Source: Polyangia bacterium
Lineage (GTDB): Bacteria; Myxococcota_A; Polyangia; Nannocystales; Nannocystaceae
Length of the DNA stretch: 64,000 bases
Reading direction: 5' to 3'
Assembly (NCBI GenBank): GCA_030424595.1
Contig: JAUHWG010000011.1
Location: 1,130-65,129, forward strand
In this document: positions 25,934 to 46,742 of the stretch, piece after piece
Position numbering within the stretch: position 1 is the first letter of the stretch
How the letters are laid out: each line of letters starts with the position of its first letter
Position numbers and translations under genes: made by a program
The notes under the pieces: model-generated
Databases searched by the model: none
Seen by the model: the letters and a program-made list of their open reading frames with translations, nothing else
What the model was told of the DNA's origin: nothing

Positions 25934-27991
25934 CTAGAGGTCCTCGTGGGCGACCCCGTCGAGGAGCGCCCCCGGGAAGCGAGCGCCCTCGAGGTTCGCG
26001 CCGGTGAAGTCCGCTCCCCTGAGGTCCGTCGCCTCCATGTCGGCCCCGGAGAGGTTCGCCTTGCGAAAGCTTGCGCCGCGGAGCGAGGTCCCTGAGAAGT
26101 CGGCCCCGGAGAGGTTCGCCCCCGAGAAGTCGCACTCGTCCATCACCGAGTCCATGGCCATGCTCTGGGCAAGGTTCGCCTCGACGAAGCGGGCGCCGAC
26201 GAAGCTCGCGCCGGAGAGATCGGACCACGAGAGGTCGACCTCGGACGCGTCGCGTCCGTCGAGCTTCTTGAGCCGGAACACCGCCTGCTCACCGTCGGCG
26301 CCCCCCTTGCCGTGATAGATGCACATGGGGATCCCCCCGGCGGAGAGCGGCGTCCACGAGCCCCCCGCGCCGCCGGAGGCGAGGAACGATGCGTGTTTGT
26401 CGAGCGTCTCAGCCCACTCCTCGTCGCTCATGGCGTCGGCGCTGGCGGTGAGGGAGCGGATGAGCGCATGATCCATCCCCCGCTCGCTCGACTCCCCGAG
26501 CCCCGGAAAGACCGAGCCTAGCTTGCCCGACGTGCTCGGCTCGCTCGGCTCGCCCGCACCGGCGAGCTCCGATCTGTGGAGGAGGATCACGACATCCTCG
26601 CCGAGCCACGCGACCATCCCTCGGGCCTCAGGCTCGGACAGGCCCTTCTCCTGGAGAAGGCCGATGATCACCTGCGGGTCCGTCGTTCGCGGGATCGACC
26701 TGCCGAGCAAGGTCTCGGTGAACTCACCCTCGCCGCCGACCTGCCAGTACCAAGAGAACGCCGCGCGAGCGCCGTTGAGAAAGTAGCTCTCGAGCGAGCC
26801 CAGGCGGTGGCGCTCGCAGTCGTTCGCGTTGTCGAAGACGAGCGTCGCCTGCGCAGGAGATCGCCCAGGATCGTACGAATAGACCGTCCTTCCCTCGGCG
26901 ACGAAGTCGTCGAAGGACGCCTCCGCCTCGTAGTCATCGTACTCCTTGCGCCACTCCGGGATCGCGTACCAGAGGCGATAGCCGGGGCTCGGGAGGCCCA
27001 CCAATTTGATCCGACCGCCGTTGTAGCCCTCGGAGAACTGAGCGCGGTCCGCCTTGTGCTCGGTCAACACCCAATTGAACTCGAGGTCGTTGACCTCGGA
27101 GGCCAAGGCCAACCACGCCTTCGGCACACGCTTGTGGTGCGCGAGCAGGCTCGCGTTGCTCGAGGGCCCGCCGATCTGAGTCTTGTAGACATACACATCG
27201 GGGCGTTGGCCGAGCACGTGGATGTACTTGAGCAGGAGCGACCCCAGGGTTACGCCCCACCGTTCGCGCTGGACGTCGAGCACCGAGTCGATGGTCTTGC
27301 GGACCGCCGCCATCTTCTCGCGCTCCGCCTCCTCGGCCTCGGCGACCCGGTCCGAGGCCCCCTCCAGGAGCTCAGACTTCACGCTCGATCGGTCGAGCAC
27401 CGCGATGAACTCGGCCTCCGTCAGGAGCCGGATACCGAGGGTCCGCGCCTTGCTCAGCTTCGATCCCGCCTTCTCGCCGTAGATCAAGAGATCGGTCTTC
27501 TTGGTCACCGAACCGCCGACCGAAGCCCCCGCCGCGGAGAGCAGCGCGGACGCGTCGGCCCGCTTCATCGTCACGAACTTGCCGGTCACTGCGATCGTCA
27601 GCCCCGCGAACTCGGACGCGGGCTCGGCCGCCTTGGGCTTGGCCGCGGTCTTGGGCTTGGCCGCGGCCTTGGGCTTGGCCGCGGTCTTGGGCTTGGCCGC
27701 GGTCTTGGGCTTGGCCGCGGTCTTGGGCTTGGCCGCGGCCTTGGGCTTGGCCGCGCTGCTCTCGAAGAGCGCGAAGAGCTCCTTCGCGGAGTGAACCGGG
27801 AGCCGCAGCGCCTCGGCCTTGCGCTGGTTGGCGTTGCCGTCGCCCCCCGAGAAGACCAGGTCTGTCTTGCCGGAGACCGACCCGACCACCCGCGCGCCCA
27901 AGGCCGTGAGCCGCTCTCTAAGGGCTTTTTGCGTGTGGCCGGGAAAATTGCCGGTGACTACGACCGTCTTGCCAGAGACTTCAATGCTCAT
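25934..27991 (-). CDS. BRCT - (AKPKxA)x7 - BRCT - unknown central domain - pentapeptide-repeat protein
   Basis: Two LigA-type BRCT modules (GKTVVVTGNF...TDLVFSG; GLTIAVTGKF...TDLLIYGEKAGSKLSKA); a Lys/Ala/Pro histone-H1-like linker; C-terminal A(N/D)LxG pentapeptide repeats. Confidence 0.75.
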   Translation of the reverse strand: MSIEVSGKTVVVTGNFPGHTQKALRERLTALGARVVGSVSGKTDLVFSGGDGNANQRKAEALRLPVHSAKELFALFESSAAKPKAAAKPKTAAKPKTAAKPKTAAKPKAAAKPKTAAKPKAAEPASEFAGLTIAVTGKFVTMKRADASALLSAAGASVGGSVTKKTDLLIYGEKAGSKLSKARTLGIRLLTEAEFIAVLDRSSVKSELLEGASDRVAEAEEAEREKMAAVRKTIDSVLDVQRERWGVTLGSLLLKYIHVLGQRPDVYVYKTQIGGPSSNASLLAHHKRVPKAWLALASEVNDLEFNWVLTEHKADRAQFSEGYNGGRIKLVGLPSPGYRLWYAIPEWRKEYDDYEAEASFDDFVAEGRTVYSYDPGRSPAQATLVFDNANDCERHRLGSLESYFLNGARAAFSWYWQVGGEGEFTETLLGRSIPRTTDPQVIIGLLQEKGLSEPEARGMVAWLGEDVVILLHRSELAGAGEPSEPSTSGKLGSVFPGLGESSERGMDHALIRSLTASADAMSDEEWAETLDKHASFLASGGAGGSWTPLSAGGIPMCIYHGKGGADGEQAVFRLKKLDGRDASEVDLSWSDLSGASFVGARFVEANLAQSMAMDSVMDECDFSGANLSGADFSGTSLRGASFRKANLSGADMEATDLRGADFTGANLEGARFPGALLDGVAHEDL
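27629..27757. repeat. Seven 18-bp tandem repeats (cttgggcttggccgcggt) encoding the AKPKTA linker
   Basis: Seen directly in the sequence. Confidence 0.85.
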
Positions 27992-28149
27992 TGTCTAGGC
28001 CTTCTCGCTTCGTCGTCGGAGGTCGGACGTCGTGGAGGATGTCGGGCGCCCGGGTCGATCGACGGTGTTTCTCGTGGACCTGTACGAGGTACCACATCTT
28101 GCGGGCGCTACCCTCGACGTTGGCGGTCGCGGCGGGGTCGCTCGAGCGG

Positions 28150-28280
28150 GCTCGACCTGGTCTCGGAGGCCGTGGCGGAGCCGCCGAAGCTTGCGGTGCG
28201 AGCCGGCACAACAGCGTTTCGCCGAGGTCACGAGGACCGACGATCGCGGCGCGAGAGCCCCGGACTCTCACAACTCCCCC
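28150..28280 (+). repeat. Copy F of the hairpin repeat family (3-prime half with an internal deletion)
   Basis: cttgcggtgcgagccggcacaacagcgtttcgccgaggtcacgaggaccgacgatcgcggcgcgagagccccggac aligns to the 3-prime halves of copies A and B. Confidence 0.5.
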
Positions 28281-28320
28281 GTGAGGCGCCCTCTCCGGGG
28301 GACCCTGGATTCTCCAGGGC

Positions 28321-29061
28321 TCAGCGGCCGAGGCTGATCTCTCGCCCTTCGACGAGGCGGCCGCCGAGGAGCCCGCTGAGGGCGGCGACAGAGAGGAGCA
28401 CGGCGAGAGATACCGGCCTGCTCGGCATGTCGAGGCCATAGGTCAGGATCCCGGCGTCGACCGACACCCCGGCGAGGCCGTGGATGTAGGTGAGGAGGCT
28501 GAGGTCCTGGATAAACCCGGGGACTCGGAGGGCGCTGTGCTCCCAGATCAGGAAGGCGAGGCCTATCCAGGCGGCGCCGCGGGAGAGGACGCCGAAGAGG
28601 GCGAAGAGGAGGCCGTAGGCGAGGCAGGCGGCGGCGCCGGCGAGGACAAAGTAGACGAGCTGGCTGAAGCTCCCCGCGACGAGGGCGACCGCTGGCAGGA
28701 CCGCGAGGAGGAGCGGTCCGAAGTGCGCGGCGCAGCGGGCCCAGTAGAGGCGGGAGCGGCGGATCGGGCGGGTAAAGGAGTAGGTGAGGGTGCCGTCCTC
28801 GACCTCCTCCCGGAGGACGCCGCTGGTGAAGAAGAGGGCGAGGAGCGGCGCCGGGTAGGCGAGGAGGATCCTGGCGCTGGCGGAGCTCGGCTCGTCGGCG
28901 ACGAAGCGCAGGAGGAGGGCGGCGATCAGCATCGTCCCGATCGCCGCGAGGGATCCGCGGCGGCGGAGGTTCCGGCGGAGGTGGAGGCTCGCCCAGGCGA
29001 GGACGACCCCCTCGCCGGTTCGGCTCGGCGCGCGCTGAGGTGCTTGGGGCGGCTCGTTCAT
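28321..29061 (-). CDS. ABC-2 type transporter permease
   Basis: 6 TM helices; start overlaps the ATPase stop (ATGA). Confidence 0.7.
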   Translation of the reverse strand: MNEPPQAPQRAPSRTGEGVVLAWASLHLRRNLRRRGSLAAIGTMLIAALLLRFVADEPSSASARILLAYPAPLLALFFTSGVLREEVEDGTLTYSFTRPIRRSRLYWARCAAHFGPLLLAVLPAVALVAGSFSQLVYFVLAGAAACLAYGLLFALFGVLSRGAAWIGLAFLIWEHSALRVPGFIQDLSLLTYIHGLAGVSVDAGILTYGLDMPSRPVSLAVLLSVAALSGLLGGRLVEGREISLGR

Positions 29062-30002
29062 CGCTGGACCAGGTAGCGGTAGAGGCTCTCGAGATCGGCG
29101 TCCGGAGAGGTGAACGACGCGAGGGTGAGGTCGAGGTCGCGGGCGATCGTGGGGATCTCGCGGCAGGCGGCGTCGAGGTCGGTGGTCGTGATCTCGACCG
29201 CGCCGTCGATGATCGACGCGGCCTCGACCAGGGCGCCGCCGATCAGGGCGGCGGCGAGGCGTCGCGCCTCCGCCACGGCGTTGTCACCATCGCTCATGAG
29301 GCCGAGGCGGATCCGGTAGGGGCGGTCGCCGAGGAGGCCGCGGAGGCGGGTGATGTCGCCCTGGGCCCGGAGCCGACCGTGGCGGATGACGACCACCTCG
29401 CGGGTCATCGACTCGACCTCGTGGAGCACGTGGCTGGAGACGATCACGCAGCGGCCCTCGTCGCCGAGCTCGCGGATGAGCTGGATGAGGTCGGCGCGGG
29501 CGACCGGGTCGGTGCCGCTCAGCGGCTCGTCGAGGAGGACGAGCGCGGGGTCGTGGGCGATCGCCTGGGCGATCTTCGTCCGCTGCCGCATGCCGCGGCT
29601 CATCTCCCGCATGCGCTTGCCGGCGTAGGGCTCCATGCCGACGCGGCCGAGCGCCCGCGTCGCCCGCTCGCGCGCCTCGGCGGCGCGAAAGCCCTGGAGG
29701 CGGGTGAGGGCGGTGACGAACTCGAGGCCGCGCATGTCCTCGTAGAATCGATCCTGCTCGGGGCAGAGGCCGAGGTCGCGGAAGACCTCGGGGCTCTTGA
29801 AGGGATCGTGGCCCCAGAGCCTGACGTCGCCGGCGTCGGGCCTAAGCTGGCCGGCGATCAGCTTGATCATCGTCGACTTGCCGGAGCCGTTGGGGCCGAG
29901 GAGGCCGATCACCCCGGAGTCGAGCTCGAGGTCGAGCTCGTCGAGGGCGCGCACCTGGCCGAAGAGCTTGCGGACGCCGCGCAGGGCGATCGTCGCGCTC
30001 AT
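29058..30002 (-). CDS. ABC transporter ATP-binding protein
   Basis: Walker A GPNGSGKST, signature LSGGMRQR-like (MSRGMRQR), Walker B LLDEP; ATG at 30002 inside the long ORF 29058..30836. Confidence 0.85.
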   Translation of the reverse strand: MSATIALRGVRKLFGQVRALDELDLELDSGVIGLLGPNGSGKSTMIKLIAGQLRPDAGDVRLWGHDPFKSPEVFRDLGLCPEQDRFYEDMRGLEFVTALTRLQGFRAAEARERATRALGRVGMEPYAGKRMREMSRGMRQRTKIAQAIAHDPALVLLDEPLSGTDPVARADLIQLIRELGDEGRCVIVSSHVLHEVESMTREVVVIRHGRLRAQGDITRLRGLLGDRPYRIRLGLMSDGDNAVAEARRLAAALIGGALVEAASIIDGAVEITTTDLDAACREIPTIARDLDLTLASFTSPDADLESLYRYLVQR

Positions 30003-30918
30003 CCCCCCACCTCCCGGCGGAGCCGGCCGACGAGCGCCGCGAGGCCGAGGCTGGCGAAGCCGAAGAGGCTCAGGGTCGAGAGGAGGGCGCTGGGGTTGAC
30101 GCTGCCGCGGAGCTCCAGGGCCGCCGCCGCAGCGCTCGCGGGGCCGGCGTCGAGGAGGGCCTCGATCATGGTCGCGACGTCGCGGGCCGGCGAGAGGTAG
30201 CCCGCCGCCGCGAGGCCGTTGCCCGCGAGGCTCTCGCCGACCGCGCTCAGGAGCAGCCAGCCGAAGACGAAGACCACGCCGATCGTCCGCCCGCGCTCGC
30301 CGAGGGCGCTCACGCCCAGGAGCGTGACCGTGAGAACGACGCTGGTCACCAGGGCGCCGATGAGCCCCGGGACGAAGAGCCACAGGAGCGAGAGCCGGAG
30401 CGTCGACGGGGCGATGCCGACGGCGAGGAGCCAGAGGAGGACGAAGGGCAGGGCGATCGTCAGGGCCGGGACCGCGCCGGCGGCGAGGAGCTTGCCCATG
30501 AGGTAGTCGCGGCGGCGCAGGGCTCTGGCGAAGTAGAGGTCGAAGGCGCCGTAGCGGCGGTCCTCGGCGATGAACCCACCGCCGATCACCGCCAGGGCGA
30601 TCACCGTGAAGTAGGTCTGGGCGCTGACGAAGCTCGAGAGGACCTCTTGGGTGTTGCCGACGATCCGGTCGACGTTGAGGCTCATCGCCGCGATCGGGGT
30701 CGAGTCGCCGAAGGTGCCGGCGGCCTGCAGGAGCACGACGACGACGATCCCGAGGGCGTGGGCCATCGCGATCATGGCGCAGGCGGCGAGGCTTATCTTG
30801 GTCGCTCGCTTGCGCCAGGCGAGCGTCAGGGCCCAACGGGCGATCGTCCGCGCGGCGTGACCGCGGCGCGGCTGGATCGGCGGCAGCCGGCGGTAGCCGA
30901 CCTCGATGACACGGTCCT

Positions 30919-30922
<4 letters not shown>
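29999..30922 (-). CDS. ABC-2 type transporter permease
   Basis: GTG at 30922 overlaps the upstream ATPase stop (GTGA); polytopic. Confidence 0.65.
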
Positions 30923-31884
<962 letters not shown>

Positions 31885-31931
31885 CGGCGCCGAACCTACC
31901 ACGGCCTCGCCGGGTCTGGGCCTGGGTCTCC

Positions 31932-33218
31932 TCAGCGGGCGGGGTCGAGGAAGGGCTCCAGCGCCTGCACCATCCGCCTCATCTCGTCAGGGGTGTTGTA
32001 GTGGGCGAGGCTCGCGCGGACGAGGCCCTCGCAGGCCGGATCGAGCTCCAGGGCGGCGAGGGCCCGAGGCGCGTAGAAGTGGCCGCTTCGCACCGCGAGA
32101 CCCGCCTCGGCGAGGGCCGCGACGATCGCGTGGGAGGGCACGCCTGCGATCTGAAACGCGACGAGCGCGACCCGCAGCGCCGGATCGCTCGTCTCTGGGC
32201 CGATGATCCGAGCGCCGGGCGCGGCTCTCAGCGCGCTCAGGAGGATCTCGGCGAGGCTCGCCTCGTGCTCGGCGATGGCGCGGAAGAGCCGATCCTTCGG
32301 GGCCTCGTCGGCGTCGCCGCGGACCGCGAAGGTGTGGTGATCGAGCGCGTCGAAGTAGTCGAGGATCCCGGGGAGGCCCGCCAGCAGCTCAGGGCTCGCG
32401 CCGCCCGGCTCGTAGCGGTAGGGCACGTCGTCGGCCGCGAGGAAGTCGTGGGTCGGCGGCGCTCCGGCGAGGAGATGTTCGCGCTTGCCGAAGAGCGCGC
32501 CGACGTGCGGGCCGAAGATCTTGTAGAGCGAGACCGCGTAGAAGTCGACGTCCCAGGCGTCGACGTCCACCTGGCGGTGGGGCCCGAAGGCGACCCCGTC
32601 GACGCAGGCGAGGGCGCCGGCGTCGTGGATCATCTGGGTCGCCGCGCGGACGTCATGGATCGCGCCGACGACGTTGGCGCAGTGGGTGAAGGCGACGAGG
32701 CGGGTGCGCTTGTTCAGGAGCCGGCGCAGGTCCTCGAGCTCGAGCGTCGCGGTGTCGGGGCACAGCGACCACTCGCGGATCGTGATCCCGGTGGCGGCGA
32801 GCCGTCGCCAGGGGCCGATGTTGGCCTCGTGATCGAGGTTGGTGACGATCACCTCGTCGCCCGCGGCCCAGGTCGGGCGGAGCGACCGCGCCAGGAGGTC
32901 GAGGTTCACCGTCGACGACCCGCCGAGGATGACCTCGCGCGGGTCTGCGCCGATCCACTCGGCGACCGCGGCGTGGCCGAGCCGGTCGAGCTCGGCCGTC
33001 TCCTGGGAGCGCGGGTGCCGGCCGCCGCGGGCGATCGTAGCCCGCTCCATCGCCGCGCCGATCCGGTCGATGACCGCCCGCGGAGCGGCGGTGCCGCCAG
33101 CGTTGTCGAGGTGGCCCCAGGCTGGTTCGAGGGCCGGGAAGGCCTCGCGGATGTAGTCGAGGTCGAGCACGGGCGGATGGTAGCAGGGCGCCGTCGATGG
33201 TATGGAGCGCCTGTGCAC
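31932..33218 (-). CDS. Class V aminotransferase / cysteine-desulfurase-like PLP enzyme
   Basis: SLYKIFGPH (PLP lysine) and HYNTPDE-like C-terminus; the track start is GTG, so the true start is uncertain (GTG at about 33170 is also possible). Confidence 0.8.
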   Translation of the reverse strand: MHRRSIPSTAPCYHPPVLDLDYIREAFPALEPAWGHLDNAGGTAAPRAVIDRIGAAMERATIARGGRHPRSQETAELDRLGHAAVAEWIGADPREVILGGSSTVNLDLLARSLRPTWAAGDEVIVTNLDHEANIGPWRRLAATGITIREWSLCPDTATLELEDLRRLLNKRTRLVAFTHCANVVGAIHDVRAATQMIHDAGALACVDGVAFGPHRQVDVDAWDVDFYAVSLYKIFGPHVGALFGKREHLLAGAPPTHDFLAADDVPYRYEPGGASPELLAGLPGILDYFDALDHHTFAVRGDADEAPKDRLFRAIAEHEASLAEILLSALRAAPGARIIGPETSDPALRVALVAFQIAGVPSHAIVAALAEAGLAVRSGHFYAPRALAALELDPACEGLVRASLAHYNTPDEMRRMVQALEPFLDPAR

Positions 33219-41956: not shown

Positions 41957-42183
41957 TGCAGAACCGACTGAAGGAGCTGCGGGCCGTCAACGGATGGAGC
42001 CAGGCGCACTTGGCCGATCTGCTCGGCGTCAGTCGTCAGACCGTCAACGCGCTGGAGAAGGGGCGCTACGACCCCAGCCTGCCCCTCGCGTTCCGGCTGT
42101 CCCGGGTCTTCGACACACCGATCGAAGCGCTCTTCACCCCTGACGACGACGATCTGGGCGCCGCCGCGTCGGCCTCCACTTGA
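41956..42183 (+). CDS. XRE/Cro-type helix-turn-helix transcriptional regulator
   Basis: LRAVNGWSQAHLADLLGVSRQTVNALEKGRYDPSLPLAFRLSRVFDTPIEALF is a canonical HTH_XRE domain. Confidence 0.85.
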   Translation: MQNRLKELRAVNGWSQAHLADLLGVSRQTVNALEKGRYDPSLPLAFRLSRVFDTPIEALFTPDDDDLGAAASAST

Positions 42184-42286
42184 CCGGCGACTTGACCGTC
42201 TGCTCCTGTCGAGGGGTCGGGCGAGAATCCAACGATCGGCTTCGATCCATGGGATCGTCGGCCTTGCGCACGAAGGCGGCAAGGGC

Positions 42287-42471
42287 TCCTCGCGGCGGTC
42301 TCGGGTTGCCTCGGACGAGCAGTCCTTCGGGACATCCGGCGCGCCGTCAAGCGTGAGCACGGACTCGCCTCCGTCGCGGAGCTCCACGGCGGCGTCGTCA
42401 CGGTCGTCCAGCGCTTCCGCTCTGACCTCGGCCTCTACGTCCACCTCCATCTGCTTGTGACCGACGGCGCC
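42287..42471 (+). pseudogene. IS91-family transposase fragment F2 (about 62 codons, mid-region)
   Basis: LLAAVSGCLGRAVLRDIRRAVKREHGLASVAELHGGVVTVVQRFRSDLGLYVHLHLLVTDGAF is near-identical to F1; both ends are abrupt. Confidence 0.7.
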
Positions 42472-42730
42472 TTCAGGTGTCCCGCACGGAACTCAGTCTC
42501 AAACGCTGCATACAGAGTGGTCCGGTACGGAACATCGCGCACGGGGTGCATAGGGTGCATGGGCGCATGGCGCGCGCTGGGTAGCGGTTCCGAGACATAC
42601 CGCATGAGGTCATCTTCGCGGGTGGGAGGGCGGCTGTCTGCGGAAGGTATGGTATGCTGTGGTGTGCGGGAAGCAGTGCCCACCAGTATTCTTACTCGGA
42701 CGTGGTATCCGGCTATTGGTTTGAGTTGCC

Positions 42731-44872
42731 GTGGCGTGGGGGGAGTACCTCGATGGACAGGTACTCGGGCGGGTGGTGTATGGCAGGACTCTGTTGGTGA
42801 GGCAAAGATTGCCCCAGAGCGAAGGTGGTGGGCTGCTTTCACCACCCTCGTGTTTTTTTTTGCTCACAACAAACTGTACGCATTCCCATGGCACGGAGGG
42901 AGGCCCCACAGTATCGAAGGTTTTGGAGATACCAGGAGCGCAGGAGCGCAGGAGCAAGCTCATTCAGAGTATTGTGCGGCAAGAGTACGTCTCATGTCTT
43001 GACGACATTGCTCCTAGGACCGATGAGGAGCGAGCTCTTCTCGCGATTTGCTACGTCTCTTTGCGCGAGCAGAGGGAGGCTGCCAGCCTCATCTTGCAGG
43101 TAGAGCCAGGCTCGAAGTGGCGTGATGTTGCCGAGGCTGTTGTCGGGCTCTCCCGTGCCCAGCCGTCCGGTGCGCCGCTCTCCGCGGAGTCGAGTTCGAT
43201 GCCTGCCTTGAACTGGCTCGTTGCGCTCCTTCACACGCGGTTGTCCCATCCTGATGATGCAGTCCGAGTGATCGAGGACTTGCTTGAGCGAGTCAAAGAT
43301 CCCTCCTGGCGCGCAGAGCTGTTGGTCCTGATGGCTGAGGCGCTCCAGCGGAGGGGGGAGCGTGAGAGAGGGCGTGAGGTACTGAAGAGCGCACTACAAG
43401 AGCACGGGGAGTCGGTGAGAGCTCTCGTGAGCCTATCTCTCGGCGCAATTGAGGCGGGGGACTTCGAGGGGGCAAATGAGTTCGCAGCGCGTGCCGTGGG
43501 ACTTGCGCCGCGTTCCTCCCCGGCAAGGTTCGCCTACTGGAAGGCGCGCATTCGGAGTGACCGCGGGGTTCCGCCTGGGTGGCTTGACTCGCAGGCAAGG
43601 GAGTTCGCGGAGTTTGTAGCCAAGTCCGCCTCGGAGACATTCTTCCTGGCAGAAGAGCTGGAGGCCCGTGGTGAGAGTGAGCTGGCATTTTCTCTCTTTG
43701 AGTTCGTAACTTTACGGTTTGCTCGCTCGAGCTTAGCGAATAGTTCTCACTATCGAGCTGCGCGTATTCTTGTGGATAATCCGGGTCTTCGGAAGGACTC
43801 AGAAACTGCGGAACTCTTGGCCAGCTATCTAGCTCGGTCAGACAGTGACAGTGCTATGTTGCGGACGGATGCGTGCTACTGGCTCTTCGACTTCGTTGCG
43901 CGGGGGGAGGTGCCGCAGGGGTCTCCCTCCCTTGAGCACCTCGCCCAGTGTGGGAGTGCTCCAGAGGCCACTGCAGGACACGTTCTACAGCGCAAGAACG
44001 AGATAGCGGTTGGGCTCGCAGGTTTCTCGGAGCAGCGCGAGCTGGCACGGGAACTCGCGCTAGGGGTGATAGAATCGCTAACGGATGCACAGAAGGAGAT
44101 TCGTCCTAATAATATTCTTGCCCGAGCGCACTTGGCCCTGGCGCTTGTGGCTGCGCAGGGATCGGAGGAGAGAGAACTCTTGGTGCATGCTGAGAAGTCC
44201 CTCAGCCTCGTTTCAACCAGTCGCGAGGTCGATTTTCGAACGATACTAGCGAGGCTGCTTATTCGGCAGGAGAAGGCATCACTGGCTTCTTCGTTCGCTG
44301 AAGCTTGCCTTCAACACCCAGACTGTGTTGAAGCGGCGAGCCTCGCGTATGAACTCGAGTACGGCAGCCTTACGGGGTTCGGCGGATATCTCCGGAAGAA
44401 GCACAAACAGCTTCTTGTGGACCGGCAAAAGATGGTCCTTGGGACCGCCAAGCAAGCAGTGGTCACTATCCCTCTGATGGACCTCGTGGACGTCCATGGT
44501 GAGCCCGGGGATCTTCCGTCGCAGGGGGCCCTGGCCATTGGTTTCTGGAACATTGACTGCGCCCCATGTCGTTGGGAGATGCCCGAGTTCCAATCCATCG
44601 TAGATGCAGCTGAGCGGAAGCAGAACCATACCGTCATATCAGTGAATGTCGCAGATAGTCCGGAGCGTGTCCGCAAGTGGATGGACGAGGAGGGCTACAA
44701 TTTTCCTGTCTATTTTCTAAAAGGAGAGTCGCCTGTTCGAGAGTTTCCCACAGTTTGGTTTGTCAATCGTCAGCGTAACCTTGTCTTCGAAACTACGGGG
44801 CTGCAGGAGAAGACTTGGTTTGAGATTGAGAGTTCCTGGCGCATGGACTTTATCGAGAAGGGGCACGAGTAG
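42731..44872 (+). CDS. Large protein with N-terminal TPR-like alpha-helical repeat region and C-terminal TlpA/ResA-like thioredoxin domain (WNIDCAPC)
   Basis: About 55% GC versus about 70% background; the thioredoxin fold has a CAPC active site followed by the typical TlpA C-terminus; the true start is probably downstream of 42731 (around 42900), as there is no clear ATG. Confidence 0.6.
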   Translation: MAWGEYLDGQVLGRVVYGRTLLVRQRLPQSEGGGLLSPPSCFFLLTTNCTHSHGTEGGPTVSKVLEIPGAQERRSKLIQSIVRQEYVSCLDDIAPRTDEERALLAICYVSLREQREAASLILQVEPGSKWRDVAEAVVGLSRAQPSGAPLSAESSSMPALNWLVALLHTRLSHPDDAVRVIEDLLERVKDPSWRAELLVLMAEALQRRGERERGREVLKSALQEHGESVRALVSLSLGAIEAGDFEGANEFAARAVGLAPRSSPARFAYWKARIRSDRGVPPGWLDSQAREFAEFVAKSASETFFLAEELEARGESELAFSLFEFVTLRFARSSLANSSHYRAARILVDNPGLRKDSETAELLASYLARSDSDSAMLRTDACYWLFDFVARGEVPQGSPSLEHLAQCGSAPEATAGHVLQRKNEIAVGLAGFSEQRELARELALGVIESLTDAQKEIRPNNILARAHLALALVAAQGSEERELLVHAEKSLSLVSTSREVDFRTILARLLIRQEKASLASSFAEACLQHPDCVEAASLAYELEYGSLTGFGGYLRKKHKQLLVDRQKMVLGTAKQAVVTIPLMDLVDVHGEPGDLPSQGALAIGFWNIDCAPCRWEMPEFQSIVDAAERKQNHTVISVNVADSPERVRKWMDEEGYNFPVYFLKGESPVREFPTVWFVNRQRNLVFETTGLQEKTWFEIESSWRMDFIEKGHE

Positions 44873-45173
44873 TCGCACCACGAGGGACGGTGCTACGGCT
44901 ACGCGATGGTCGCTCTGGAGGCTGAGGCTGGAAGAACGCCTAGGAAGCGATTCCCTGAGGTGATGTGCCGACCTGTCGACCTCAGAAGCTGAGGCTCACC
45001 GGAGGGCGCTTAGGACGTTCTATCTGGGAATTAGGGCCAGCGACCGAGTAGCGGGAGCTGTCTCGATCCCGGCTCTTTGCGGGCCGTCCCCCAGAGGATC
45101 GAGGAGCGGCACCACGACCGGTGGCCATGAGACGCAACGGCGATCCAGACGCCCAGTCGGCGACTTCACGAAG

Positions 45174-45395
45174 ATGAAGGACCACAAGGTGCCGACCATG
45201 ACACCGCGCCGCATCGGCTGGGCACACCTCCTCGCGCGGGTCTTCGCCGTCGACGTCACGGTCTGCTCGAAGTGCGGCGGGCGGATGAAGATCCTCGAGG
45301 TCGTCACCGATCCCGGCACCATCGCCGAGCGACCGCACGGCGCCCGCGCGCCGCCACGACCCTGTCCTCCTGGGCAGTTGAGGATGTTCGCGTAA
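45174..45395 (+). pseudogene. IS91-family transposase C-terminal fragment F5
   Basis: RIGWAHLLARVFAVDVTVCSKCGGRMKILEVVTDPGTIAE matches the conserved IS91 TnpA C-terminus (RVF.iD...C..CGG.m.i); preceded by an in-frame stop. Confidence 0.7.
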
Positions 45396-45659
45396 GCGCG
45401 TGCCGAGGGGTCGCGCTCGGCTTCGCGCGTCCAGCCGTCGACGTCGCGTCGCGAGGCCCGGCAAGGGCGGTGAACTGGCCTACGAACGCATCTCGCGGGA
45501 CTGTTGAAGCGGTTGGCGCACCTCGTGGAGCGTCCATGCGCCGTCAGGGCTTTAGCCTCCACGAGCCTCCGAGTACCCGGCGCCTTGCCCGAATTTCCGG
45601 CTTGAACTTCTTAACCGCCGCCACGGAGCGGCGGCGTGTCATGATCACCGCTTCGAAGG

Positions 45660-46742
45660 ATGTCACCCCGACCCCGCATCCGCTGGCCGCTCGGCCCGCT
45701 CCTCGCGCTGACCCTGGGGATCGGCTGCGAGCGCGCTGGGCCGACGATCGAGGCCGCGTCACCCGGCGAGGCGCAGGCCGTCGAAGCGGCGTCGCCCGGC
45801 GTCGCCGAGCCCGCCGCGCCTCCAATCGAAATCACCCTCGAGATCACGCAGACGGCGGTCGTCGTCACCCACGTCGAGGCGCTCGACGAACCCGGCGACC
45901 CCCCGCGCGAGCGTGGGCCAGCGCGCTTCGAAATCGCGACGATCCTCGCGGGCGAGCGCAGCGACGAGCGTGAGCCATTCCGCAGCGAGCTCGCGCGCCT
46001 CCACGCCCGGGCCACCGGGCGCGCGGACCCGGCCCCGGAGGACGAGGACGCCGCCGAGGGCGAGGACCAGCGCCTCCTCGTCCGCGTCACCGACGACGTG
46101 GGCACCCGCAAGGTCCAGGAGGTCCTCGATCGGGCGCTCCGCGCCGGCCCGTGGGAGCTCACGCTCGAGGTCCAGGGCCCGGGCGCGCCGCGCCTCGTCC
46201 CCCTCCTCCCCTACGCCTTCTGCGCCTGCCCGATGCCCGAGGGGACGACCTGGTGCGCCGCGCCGAGCCTGCGGATCGACGAAGCCGGCGTGACCCTCCT
46301 GGCCACCCCCGACCTCCGGCCGCCGCCGGGCTGCCACAAGACGATCCCGAGGGTGGGTCAGGAGCGGCCGCCCTTCGCCGCGGCGATCGACTGGCGCAAT
46401 CGCGTGATCGCGGGACCCGAAGGCGGCTGCCCGAGCGCGACCATCGACCGTCGCCGCGTCGACCGCGACACGCTCCGCGAGCGCCTCGTCGCCCTCCACG
46501 ACGCCGCCCCCGGCTGCGGCTGGGCCGAGGTGGCGGTCGACGGCCAGATCCCCTGGGCGCGGGTCGCCGAGGTCCTCGCCGCGCTCCACGAGACCTTCGG
46601 CGTGCTCCGGATCTCCTTCCGCGACCCGACGCCGACGCCGGACCGCGAGTGCGCGCGGGCGCTGACGATCGACGCTCTGCGCCCCGCGAGCGCGACCGGG
46701 TCGCCGCTCGCCCGCCGCCCCGGCTGCCGCGAGGAGCGATGA
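45660..46742 (+). CDS. Hypothetical lipoprotein
   Basis: WPLGPLLALTLGIGC lipobox; 360 aa with several Cys pairs. Confidence 0.5.
   Translation: MSPRPRIRWPLGPLLALTLGIGCERAGPTIEAASPGEAQAVEAASPGVAEPAAPPIEITLEITQTAVVVTHVEALDEPGDPPRERGPARFEIATILAGERSDEREPFRSELARLHARATGRADPAPEDEDAAEGEDQRLLVRVTDDVGTRKVQEVLDRALRAGPWELTLEVQGPGAPRLVPLLPYAFCACPMPEGTTWCAAPSLRIDEAGVTLLATPDLRPPPGCHKTIPRVGQERPPFAAAIDWRNRVIAGPEGGCPSATIDRRRVDRDTLRERLVALHDAAPGCGWAEVAVDGQIPWARVAEVLAALHETFGVLRISFRDPTPTPDRECARALTIDALRPASATGSPLARRPGCREER

Follow-up and report, generated by a model that had tools for sequence, protein, structure and literature searches.

A conserved protein family, mainly of Myxococcota, combining LigA-type BRCT domains, a predicted SUKH-like domain and a capped pentapeptide-repeat beta-helix

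BRCT domains found in bacteria outside LigA are poorly understood, and the window analysed here (the whole 64,000-nucleotide stretch of DNA) contains a gene whose product carries two of them in an unusual setting. From the N- to the C-terminus the order is BRCT1, an (AAKPKT)x7 tract, BRCT2, a central domain, a linker, a helical cap and a pentapeptide-repeat (PRP) beta-helix (Table 1). Each of these domain kinds is known and it is their combination that is new; our literature search found no description of an architecture joining BRCT with PRP, SUKH with PRP or SUKH with BRCT. The locus raises two questions, namely whether such a protein is genuine and what a protein built in this way could do.

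Table 1. Position of the gene and of its encoded domains within the window
Feature	Coordinates	Strand	Basis
Whole gene	25934..27991	(-)	685 aa, ATG start, stop codon 25934-25936; single continuous frame
BRCT1 (aa 4-78), diverged accessory BRCT	27758..27982	(-)	pLDDT 88-95; presence varies in alignment A1
Disordered basic (AAKPK[TA])x7 linker (aa 79-121), net charge ~+12	27629..27757	(-)	TRF; pLDDT <50 at aa 81-122
BRCT2 (aa 118-200), LigA/RFC1 class, conserved BRCT of the family	27392..27640	(-)	2owo alignment; invariant residues in A1
Central domain (aa ~212-474): N-terminal helices, SUKH-like alpha/beta core (predicted), C-terminal helical bundle	26570..27358	(-)	no Pfam/NCBIfam model
Linker (aa 475-505), partly disordered, fused forms only	26477..26569	(-)	pLDDT <50 at aa 480-487; alignment
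Helical N-terminal PRP cap (aa 506-544), conserved with the repeats	26360..26476	(-)	helices 508-516 and 523-538; PRPcap HMM
Pentapeptide-repeat right-handed beta-helix (aa 545-685, ~7 coils), acidic, no C-terminal helix	25937..26359	(-)	PF00805; model

The gene is real and conserved, mainly among Myxococcota. The initial annotation had named a fusion artefact of a frameshifted assembly as one of the outcomes that would undo its reading, and the existence of split versions, in which a BRCT-central-domain gene is followed by a PRP gene, might be taken to favour a joining of separate genes. However, the frame is continuous with a uniform GC3 (0.90 overall, 0.85-1.00 per domain), the same architecture is present in many independent genomes, and ten other independently assembled loci carry the fusion as well, its linker conserved. 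Furthermore, the split-form proteins end at a conserved ...LLPK, immediately before the position of the linker, which they lack; this indicates true gene fission or fusion, and the probability of an artefact is negligible. The open reading frame that overlaps the gene on the + strand (26576..28441) has a GC3 of only 0.645 and is therefore non-coding. Scans for promoters, terminators and Rfam families around the gene gave no matches. In an AlphaFold2 (AF2) model of the 685-aa protein the single domains were confident and the overall pTM was 0.52, which indicates that the domains are flexibly tethered, like beads on a string.

Domain searches bore out most of the architecture that had been read from the sequence alone, including two LigA-like BRCT modules, a histone-H1-like AKPKTA x7 linker between them and a C-terminal pentapeptide-repeat beta-helix. 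Pfam BRCT (PF00533) matched in two stretches with 64.9 bits against a cutoff of 21.3. BRCT2 aligned with the E. coli LigA BRCT (2owo residues 591-669, 79 residues; E = 2.5e-17, about half of the positions identical) and with the RFC1 BRCT (E = 3e-8). BRCT1 is a diverged copy, sharing 34 % identity with BRCT2; two invariant residues of BRCT2, the Arg and the GSK Lys, are not present in it, and in homologs the whole domain is missing, duplicated or replaced by lysine-rich tails. Across the 30 sequences of alignment A1, the TG...R...GSK motif of BRCT2 was preserved, with R144, G176, S177 and K178 invariant and T136 and G137 nearly so. The TG, Arg and GSK Lys align with the LigA BRCT and correspond to the residues that form the phosphate pocket of BRCT domains, which makes them putative pocket residues here. 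BRCT domains contribute to the binding of double-stranded DNA by LigA, a Thermus BRCT binds DNA on its own, and the phosphate pocket of the bacterial BRCT has been linked to phosphates at nicks or DNA ends (PMC10504179).

Membership of an anti-phage system was considered and rejected, as PADLOC PDC-S48 matched only aa 109-201, which is the BRCT region. GapS2 was likewise rejected, with 43.9 bits against a cutoff of 330, again confined to the BRCT region. Effector genes were not present next to the gene.

The AKPK tract is encoded by an 18-bp tandem repeat (27632-27755, 6.9 copies, 97 % identical by TRF) and was predicted to be disordered. Its length differs even between relatives that are 91 % identical, and a K-rich tract is absent from P0008-P0010, P0012 and P0014-P0016, full members of the family that begin directly at BRCT2. 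In some other homologs, long K/A-rich tails with a charge of +18 to +23 take the place of BRCT1, and P0022 and P0024 have weak HC2-type histone-like Pfam matches. This exchangeability of BRCT1 for K/A-rich tails, together with the HC2 matches, fits a generic DNA-affinity role.

At the other end of the protein, PF00805 scored 93.8 bits against a cutoff of 20.2, matches of the same type were also obtained against known PRP structures, and the AF2 model shows a regular five-residue strand pattern over aa 545-681 at a pLDDT of 90-98. The charge of the PRP is -12, with a pI of 4.1 over the last 105 aa, against a basic head (linker +12, BRCT domains with a pI of ~9.8). Most homologs are likewise acidic in this module, with exceptions in P0015 (+2), P0016 (-3) and P0011 (-2). 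Separately encoded PRPs align to the C-terminal module from the cap onward with 36-43 % identity. A homology search with the PRP cap alone gave no matches, and known family members were missed by it as well.

Between the head and the PRP, the initial annotation had placed a single uncharacterised domain of about 350 aa. This region proved instead to be composite, consisting of a domain of ~260 aa, a partly disordered linker of ~30 aa and the helical PRP cap. The central domain is SUKH-like on the basis of its modelled fold: it has the alpha/beta arrangement by which SUKH folds are recognised, and the best Foldseek match to SUKH structures had an E of 0.04. Comparison of the central-domain alignment with P0030, a relative containing SMI1_KNR4, gave an hhalign probability of 0.4, a weak value obtained against a single-sequence target. 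None of the SUKH Pfam families (SMI1_KNR4, SUKH-3 to SUKH-6, Syd and others) matched any of 21 members at E values up to 10, NCBIfam gave no match, and a 21-sequence profile returned nothing meaningful from the PDB sequences. Matches to RmlD_sub_bind and PFU were weak (E ~0.03) and were dismissed as noise. Relatives of the central domain numbered 195 among 1.84 billion representative proteins. The central domain is also paired with beta-propeller, ankyrin and TPR modules; P0030 has the architecture WGR+BRCT+SMI1_KNR4, and in P0071 the central domain is joined to a segment that resembles the LigA adenylation domain without its KxDG lysine.

Approximately 29 homologs were recovered, mostly from Myxococcota, and the full-length ones share 46-91 % identity with the window protein. 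The family is patchy; for example, none was recovered from Myxococcus. Among cultured organisms, the Nannocystaceae strain ST9 carries the split form and Nannocystis species carry a divergent form without the PRP, while the Archangium carriers are MAGs only. Conservation is highest in the central domain and the PRP rather than in the basic tract. The capped PRP is fused to the central domain in the window and in ten other loci (L001, L003, L005, L006, L009-L012, L015 and L016; L004 and L008 duplicate L003), and it is encoded by the next gene in seven. Central domain and PRP were thus coupled in 18/18 informative loci, which makes them an obligate pair, fused or adjacent, in the BRCT subfamily. 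In distant relatives without BRCT domains, the central domain, cap and PRP are kept behind lysine-rich or coiled N-termini.

Gene neighbourhoods were compared across nine independent contexts with Pfam-annotated neighbours, a set that leaves out L005, which repeats the synteny of the window, and L026, a 2-kb contig without an annotated neighbour. The gene context is chromosomal and single-gene. Window synteny is common only to L005, the closest relative (91 % identical), and this includes the ABC-transporter genes just upstream of the gene in the window. Proximity to repair genes had been put forward as a check on the scaffold idea, and none was seen: genes for repair, topoisomerases or toxins did not occur in any of the nine contexts. 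Conservation of the neighbourhood thus gave no clue to function. The examined loci were also devoid of ligase genes in a conserved neighbourhood, of an mfpB-like partner and of linkage to a topoisomerase-poison biosynthetic gene cluster (BGC).

What, then, might this protein do? We propose, at a probability of roughly 40 % and with both the DNA binding and the target inferred, that it is a DNA-tethered, non-catalytic adaptor and captures a DNA-processing protein through its SUKH-like/PRP unit. BRCT2, helped by BRCT1 and the disordered AKPK tract, would bind DNA, possibly by engaging nicks or 5'-phosphate ends in its phosphate pocket, and the tract would add non-specific affinity. The SUKH-like domain and the acidic PRP would probably act together, presumably as a physical complex, to form a protein-capturing unit in which the PRP may serve as a DNA mimic. 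Such a unit could bind a DNA-processing enzyme at nicks or ends and modulate or shield it, with type II topoisomerases and nick-processing enzymes as the likeliest targets. Since the central domain also occurs beside beta-propeller, ankyrin and TPR modules, the PRP may instead be a generic binding surface. Further points against the adaptor are the lack of topoisomerase, ligase and repair genes in conserved neighbourhoods, the nearly neutral PRPs of P0011, P0015 and P0016, the missing C-terminal helix and low Qnr and MfpA scores of the PRP, and a SUKH relationship seen at the level of the fold. The DNA- or protein-interacting scaffold that was originally suggested survives here as a non-enzymatic idea compatible with all of the findings and indirectly supported by the LigA-class BRCT, the basic head with an acidic tail, and the WGR+BRCT and LigA-like fusions in relatives, without the repair-gene neighbourhood. 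A more specific version, which is speculative and on present evidence unlikely, regards the SUKH-like domain and the capped PRP DNA mimic as a two-part module parked on nicks or ends by LigA-type BRCT domains or histone-like tails, forming a tethered decoy that controls whether a topoisomerase, a ligase or a nuclease can reach damaged DNA. If true, PRPs would gain a mode of action not seen before, the first to involve an obligate SUKH-type co-factor.

Three other functions deserve to be weighed against the adaptor. In an XRCC1-like repair scaffold, the BRCT domains would bring the protein to nicks, breaks or a LigA-BRCT partner such as an AP endonuclease, and the SUKH-like and PRP modules would hold repair enzymes for base-excision or nick repair. 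Such a scaffold overlaps with the adaptor, with repair made the specific process. The LigA-class BRCT is in keeping with it, as are the binding of XthA by the M. tuberculosis LigA BRCT (PMC7530888), the joining in P0030 of BRCT and SUKH-1 with WGR, a domain found in PARPs, and the LigA adenylation-like fusion of P0071. However, a repair gene was adjacent in no examined locus, a LexA/SOS link was absent from all family searches, and the patchiness of the family, with none recovered from Myxococcus, is not what one would expect of a core repair factor, leaving a dedicated repair role doubtful. Immunity or protection against DNA-targeting toxins, in which the SUKH-like domain would neutralise a nuclease toxin in the manner of classical SUKH immunity proteins and/or the PRP would shield gyrase from a topoisomerase poison (cf. 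AlbG, CysO, PcyT and Qnr), is rather less probable again. Myxobacterial PRPs do give self-resistance to gyrase poisons (PMC5982219), and the upstream ABC-transporter genes recall the pcy resistance operon, but these neighbours are common only to the near-identical L005, and in none of the examined loci does the gene lie beside a toxin gene, a polyimmunity array or a biosynthetic cluster. Only one copy is present in the window, and its good conservation (38-91 % identity) contrasts with the fast evolution of immunity genes; the collections searched contained no copies on plasmids or in phages, and the PRP falls far short of the Qnr and MfpA models (34-35 bits against cutoffs of 240-360).

The least probable of these three functions, in our view improbable outright, is that of a nucleoid-associated or architectural protein, whose H1-like tract and BRCT domains would coat or bridge DNA while the C-terminal modules self-assemble. 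Strongly basic K/A/P-rich tracts do recur across homologs, and the HC2 matches of P0022 and P0024 agree with such a role. Against this, the tract is missing from the full members listed above, its length varies between close relatives, and conservation peaks at the opposite end of the protein. We favour the adaptor, at the strength given above.

Only the BRCT region matches the NCBIfam LigA models (NF005932, 116 bits against 369; TIGR00575, 92 against 444), and the protein is therefore not a ligase; it has none of the adenylation (KxDG), OB, Zn-finger and HhH domains of LigA. As judged by sequence, BRCT2 shares the TG...R...GSK pocket residues of LigA and probably the same kind of DNA/phosphate-binding surface. 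The SUKH superfamily (Smi1/Knr4, YobK, Syd and FBXO3) comprises toxin immunity proteins and adaptors. At ~260 aa the central domain is twice as large as its domains, having additional helices at the N-terminus and a helical bundle at the C-terminus, and it has neither a sequence-level match nor a toxin-gene neighbour. The founding paper on SUKH mentions no BRCT or PRP fusions, whereas the window protein has both. The central domain adds to this predicted fold a family without a Pfam or NCBIfam model, and would extend SUKH-type domains to a chromosomal, DNA-linked, non-toxin context.

The PRP shares with MfpA, Qnr, AlbG, McbG, CysO and PcyT the right-handed beta-helix, and by net charge it is strongly acidic in the window protein and in most homologs. 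In MfpA and QnrB1 structures, a C-terminal alpha-helix mediates tail-to-tail dimerisation into a DNA-sized rod; in contrast, the window PRP has only ~7 coils, lacks a C-terminal helix in the model and has no Qnr-type loops, and it scores 35.4 bits against 240 for Qnr and 34.3 against 360 for MfpA. It differs further from the topoisomerase-targeting PRPs in its family-specific helical cap and in being, throughout the examined loci, always coupled to the SUKH-like domain and never alone beside a BGC. The known partner of MfpA is the GTPase MfpB, not a SUKH domain. To our knowledge, no function of PRPs has been established beyond that of the gyrase protectors (Qnr, MfpA, AlbG and McbG) and HetL.

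The AKPK tract resembles the tails of Chlamydia Hc2 in its lysine/alanine/proline repeat composition, which makes non-specific DNA affinity likely, and similar K/A/P repeats are present in the tails of mycobacterial HupB and Pseudomonas AlgP. Unlike H1-like tails, it is a short (~40 aa), length-variable internal linker that arose from an 18-bp repeat and is dispensable in many members. XRCC1 and other tandem-BRCT scaffolds are alike in being non-enzymatic, with two BRCT domains across a disordered basic linker and a beads-on-a-string layout. However, homology to XRCC1 does not extend beyond the BRCT fold, and the BRCT domains of the window protein belong to the LigA/RFC1 class, which binds DNA ends, rather than to the tandem pairs that bind phosphopeptides. 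In place of the XRCC1 N-terminal domain the protein has the SUKH-like and PRP modules, and in this family a PRP thus comes with a fixed partner domain and a putative DNA-anchoring head.

The initial annotation had placed the ORF of the BRCT–PRP gene exactly. Long spurious ORFs are common in the window, as its G+C content is ~70 %, but the GC3 of this gene was 0.90 overall and 0.85–1.00 in every one of eight segments, and this uniformly high value indicates a single, continuous and genuine coding frame. An overlapping antisense ORF was rejected as a gene: with a GC3 of only 0.645 it is non-coding, a shadow ORF of the kind usual in high-GC DNA, and its (GLGR)n stretch is what the AKPK repeat gives when read in reverse. 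The full-length AlphaFold2 model (mean pLDDT 85.7, pTM only 0.52) showed individually confident domains with two disordered joins, which indicates a beads-on-a-string protein. The pentapeptide-repeat assignment held (Pfam 93.8 bits, cutoff 20.2), while the uncharacterized region of ~350 aa reported before it was resolved by the model into three parts rather than one single domain. The PRP beta-helix lacks a C-terminal helix, and the 685 aa protein has no catalytic domain. Charge is polarized, with BRCTs of pI ~9.8 and an AKPK linker of +12, followed by −6 in the central domain, −4 in the cap and −12 in the last 105 residues (pI 4.1).

Positions of features in the window, the BRCT–PRP protein and related loci
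Feature	Sequence	Position	Detail
BRCT–PRP gene	window	25934..27991 (−)	ATG start, 685 aa
BRCT1	protein	aa 4-78	
Disordered join (AKPK tract)	protein	aa 81-122	
18 bp tandem repeat (AKPK tract)	window	27632-27755	6.9 copies, 97 % identity
BRCT2	protein	aa 118-200	
Central domain	protein	aa ~212-474	~260 aa; part 1 of 3
Disordered join	protein	aa 480-487	
Linker	protein		~30 aa, between central domain and cap helices; part 2 of 3
Two cap helices	protein	aa 508-538	belong to PRP module; part 3 of 3
PRP beta-helix	protein	aa 545 to ~681	~7 coils
Antisense ORF (rejected)	window	26576-28441 (+)	621 aa
ABC-transporter region	window	28321-33218 (−)	
Low-G+C stretch	window	42000-46000	G+C 0.62-0.63
TPR–thioredoxin-like ORF	window	42731-44872 (+)	713 aa
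Separate PRP gene	L002	10 bp downstream	36 % identity to C-terminal module of window protein, E = 9e-26
Separate PRP gene	L007	24 bp downstream	43 % identity to C-terminal module of window protein, E = 3e-38
ECF-type sigma factor gene	L001	9764-10360	
ECF-type sigma factor gene	L002	6464-7048	
ECF-type sigma factor gene	L027	3267-3866	
DnaE with intein, then transposase	L001	1-2720	near P0016 gene
P0071 gene	L027	6001-7608	

Both BRCT domains (Pfam 64.9 bits over two stretches, cutoff 21.3) and the (AAKPK[TA])x7 tract were likewise borne out. In NCBIfam and PDB sequence searches, BRCT2 most resembled the C-terminal BRCT of NAD-dependent ligases; it aligned with E. coli LigA 591–669 (E = 2.5e-17, about half of the positions identical) and with the RFC1 BRCT (E = 3e-8). 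BRCT1 is a diverged copy (34 % identity to BRCT2) and lacks the Arg and G-S-K residues, which BRCT2 keeps without exception throughout the family alignment. The 685 aa protein was not assigned to LigA, GapS2 or PDC-S48. LigA BRCT domains add to dsDNA binding, an isolated Thermus BRCT binds DNA and the phosphate pocket of bacterial BRCTs has been linked to the phosphates of nicks or ends (PMC10504179); XthA is a protein that the LigA BRCT can bind as well (PMC7530888). Even P0001, the relative with 91 % identity, has a lysine-rich tract of another length, its K/A-rich segment spanning 34 aa compared to 38 aa here, and the AKPK linker looks like a repeat that is still actively growing and shrinking.

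By sequence, the central domain matched nothing in Pfam (E values up to 10, 21 members searched), in NCBIfam or in PDB sequences searched by profile, and hhalign against one SMI1_KNR4-containing protein was negative. The SUKH superfamily was founded on five structures (2PRV, 3FFV, 2PAG, 2ICG and 3D5P; PMC3113570), all of which were among the listed matches to the central domain, and Foldseek agreed weakly (best match 2icg, E = 0.04, probability 0.94). On the predicted structure, the domain would be SUKH-like by fold and not by sequence, and any homology is putative. SUKH domains are non-catalytic and bind proteins via a cleft (PMC3113570).

The homology search returned ~29 true homologs, the named ones being Myxococcales MAGs, and a genome scan found relatives in Myxococcales, Polyangia, Nannocystaceae, Bradymonadaceae and Archangium and in one Leptospiraceae MAG; NCBI labels members merely as 'pentapeptide repeat-containing protein'. 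Alignment showed a constant core of BRCT2, helical linker and central domain, with BRCT1 missing from some homologs and in others duplicated (P0005 reaching four BRCTs) or swapped for long K/A-rich tails (+18 to +23). In about one-third of homologs, a conserved ...LLPK terminus closes the protein directly behind the central domain, and in those genomes the capped PRP module is the next gene. One HMM per module, run over all fetched loci, found the central domain and PRP fused in the window and ten distinct loci (L001, L003, L005, L006, L009–L012, L015 and L016), and split, the PRP being encoded by the ORF that follows, in seven (L002, L007, L013 and L017–L020); L014 was uninformative, its contig stopping too early. 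This pattern of fusion and fission suggests, at the sequence level, that the two modules probably work together, and it rules out an assembly artefact as the source of the fusion, an explanation that is effectively refuted. P0027 (487 aa) was left out of the HMMs, as the central-domain profile matched only to ~216, followed by unrelated arginine-rich sequence that is probably a frameshift in that assembly.

A divergent subfamily (L021–L024, from Nannocystis pusilla, N. punicea, Nannocystis sp. RBIL2 and a Polyangiales MAG) ends at the central domain, with the PRP neither fused nor downstream; most members have no recognizable BRCT and their N-terminal regions are unannotated. When 1.84 billion representative proteins were searched exhaustively with a profile, no more than 195 relatives emerged (E up to 1e-3), among them stand-alone central domains, BRCT plus central domain, and BRCT-less proteins with a lysine-rich or coiled N-terminus, a divergent central domain and the same cap and PRP, while others pair the central domain with PQQ-type beta-propellers, ankyrin or TPR repeats. 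Two more proteins connect the family with DNA enzymes. P0071 joins the central domain to a segment resembling LigA adenylation domains (PF01653, E = 1.6e-13) whose KxDG lysine is replaced, apparently a dead ligase fragment; a HicA/HicB toxin–antitoxin pair lies directly downstream of this gene. P0030, from an Archangiaceae MAG and found only via its BRCT, carries WGR, BRCT and SMI1_KNR4 (canonical SUKH-1), an independent BRCT–SUKH combination in Myxococcota.

We favour, with a probability of about 0.4, a DNA-anchored head joined to a SUKH-like/PRP unit that captures a DNA-processing protein. The basic head would hold the protein to DNA, with nicks or 5'-phosphate ends as the probable sites, and the SUKH-like domain and acidic PRP would then bind a DNA-processing protein there, modulating or shielding it. 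A scaffold specific to repair seems doubtful; the neighbouring repair genes raised by the initial annotation were not seen, as none adjoins a family member at any examined locus. Myxobacterial PRPs shield gyrase from poisons (PMC5982219), but immunity to a toxin or poison is an unlikely role here, since the PRP has no dimerization helix, its Qnr and MfpA scores are 34–35 bits against cutoffs of 240–360, and no toxin or biosynthetic gene lies beside a family member at the examined loci. A nucleoid architectural protein is more improbable still, the basic tract being missing in many members.

Single or as a pair, the gene forms a self-contained unit of the chromosome. Plasmid and phage collections held no homologs, and promoter, terminator and Rfam scans around the gene revealed no feature that stands out. 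Its window neighbours are an M1 aminopeptidase and a convergent DUF2339 membrane protein, and on the upstream side, genes for two ABC-transporter ATPases alternate with those of two unannotated membrane proteins and are followed by a class V aminotransferase. This synteny is common to the 91 % identical relative (L005) only, other loci having unrelated neighbours with no topoisomerase gene next to the family member, and the link to the ABC-transporter genes is thus probably coincidental. ECF-type sigma factor genes lie ~1–3 kb from family members at three unrelated loci, but not at that of the window. Near the P0016 gene, DnaE (Pol III alpha) with a LAGLIDADG endonuclease intein precedes a DDE transposase. 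Elsewhere in the window, which holds no tRNA genes, a stretch of reduced G+C (~0.70 elsewhere) may be horizontally acquired DNA; an ORF inside it encodes TPR repeats and, at the C-terminus, an AhpC/TSA thioredoxin-like domain.

Within the literature library searched, no paper described BRCT, SUKH and PRP together, and the founding SUKH paper makes no mention of BRCT, pentapeptide, WGR, ankyrin or TPR (PMC3113570). What is new is the combination of known domain kinds, a domain family unmodelled by current libraries and the obligate partnership of its PRP. The function is predicted only and the family taxonomically narrow, but the architecture is real and offers a testable handle on the function of PRPs and bacterial BRCTs. 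A canonical SUKH domain is about half as large as the central domain, which has additional helices at its N-terminus and a helical bundle at its C-terminus. The ABC genes and BRCT–PRP gene of the window resemble the ABC and PRP resistance operons of myxobacterial gyrase-poison clusters.
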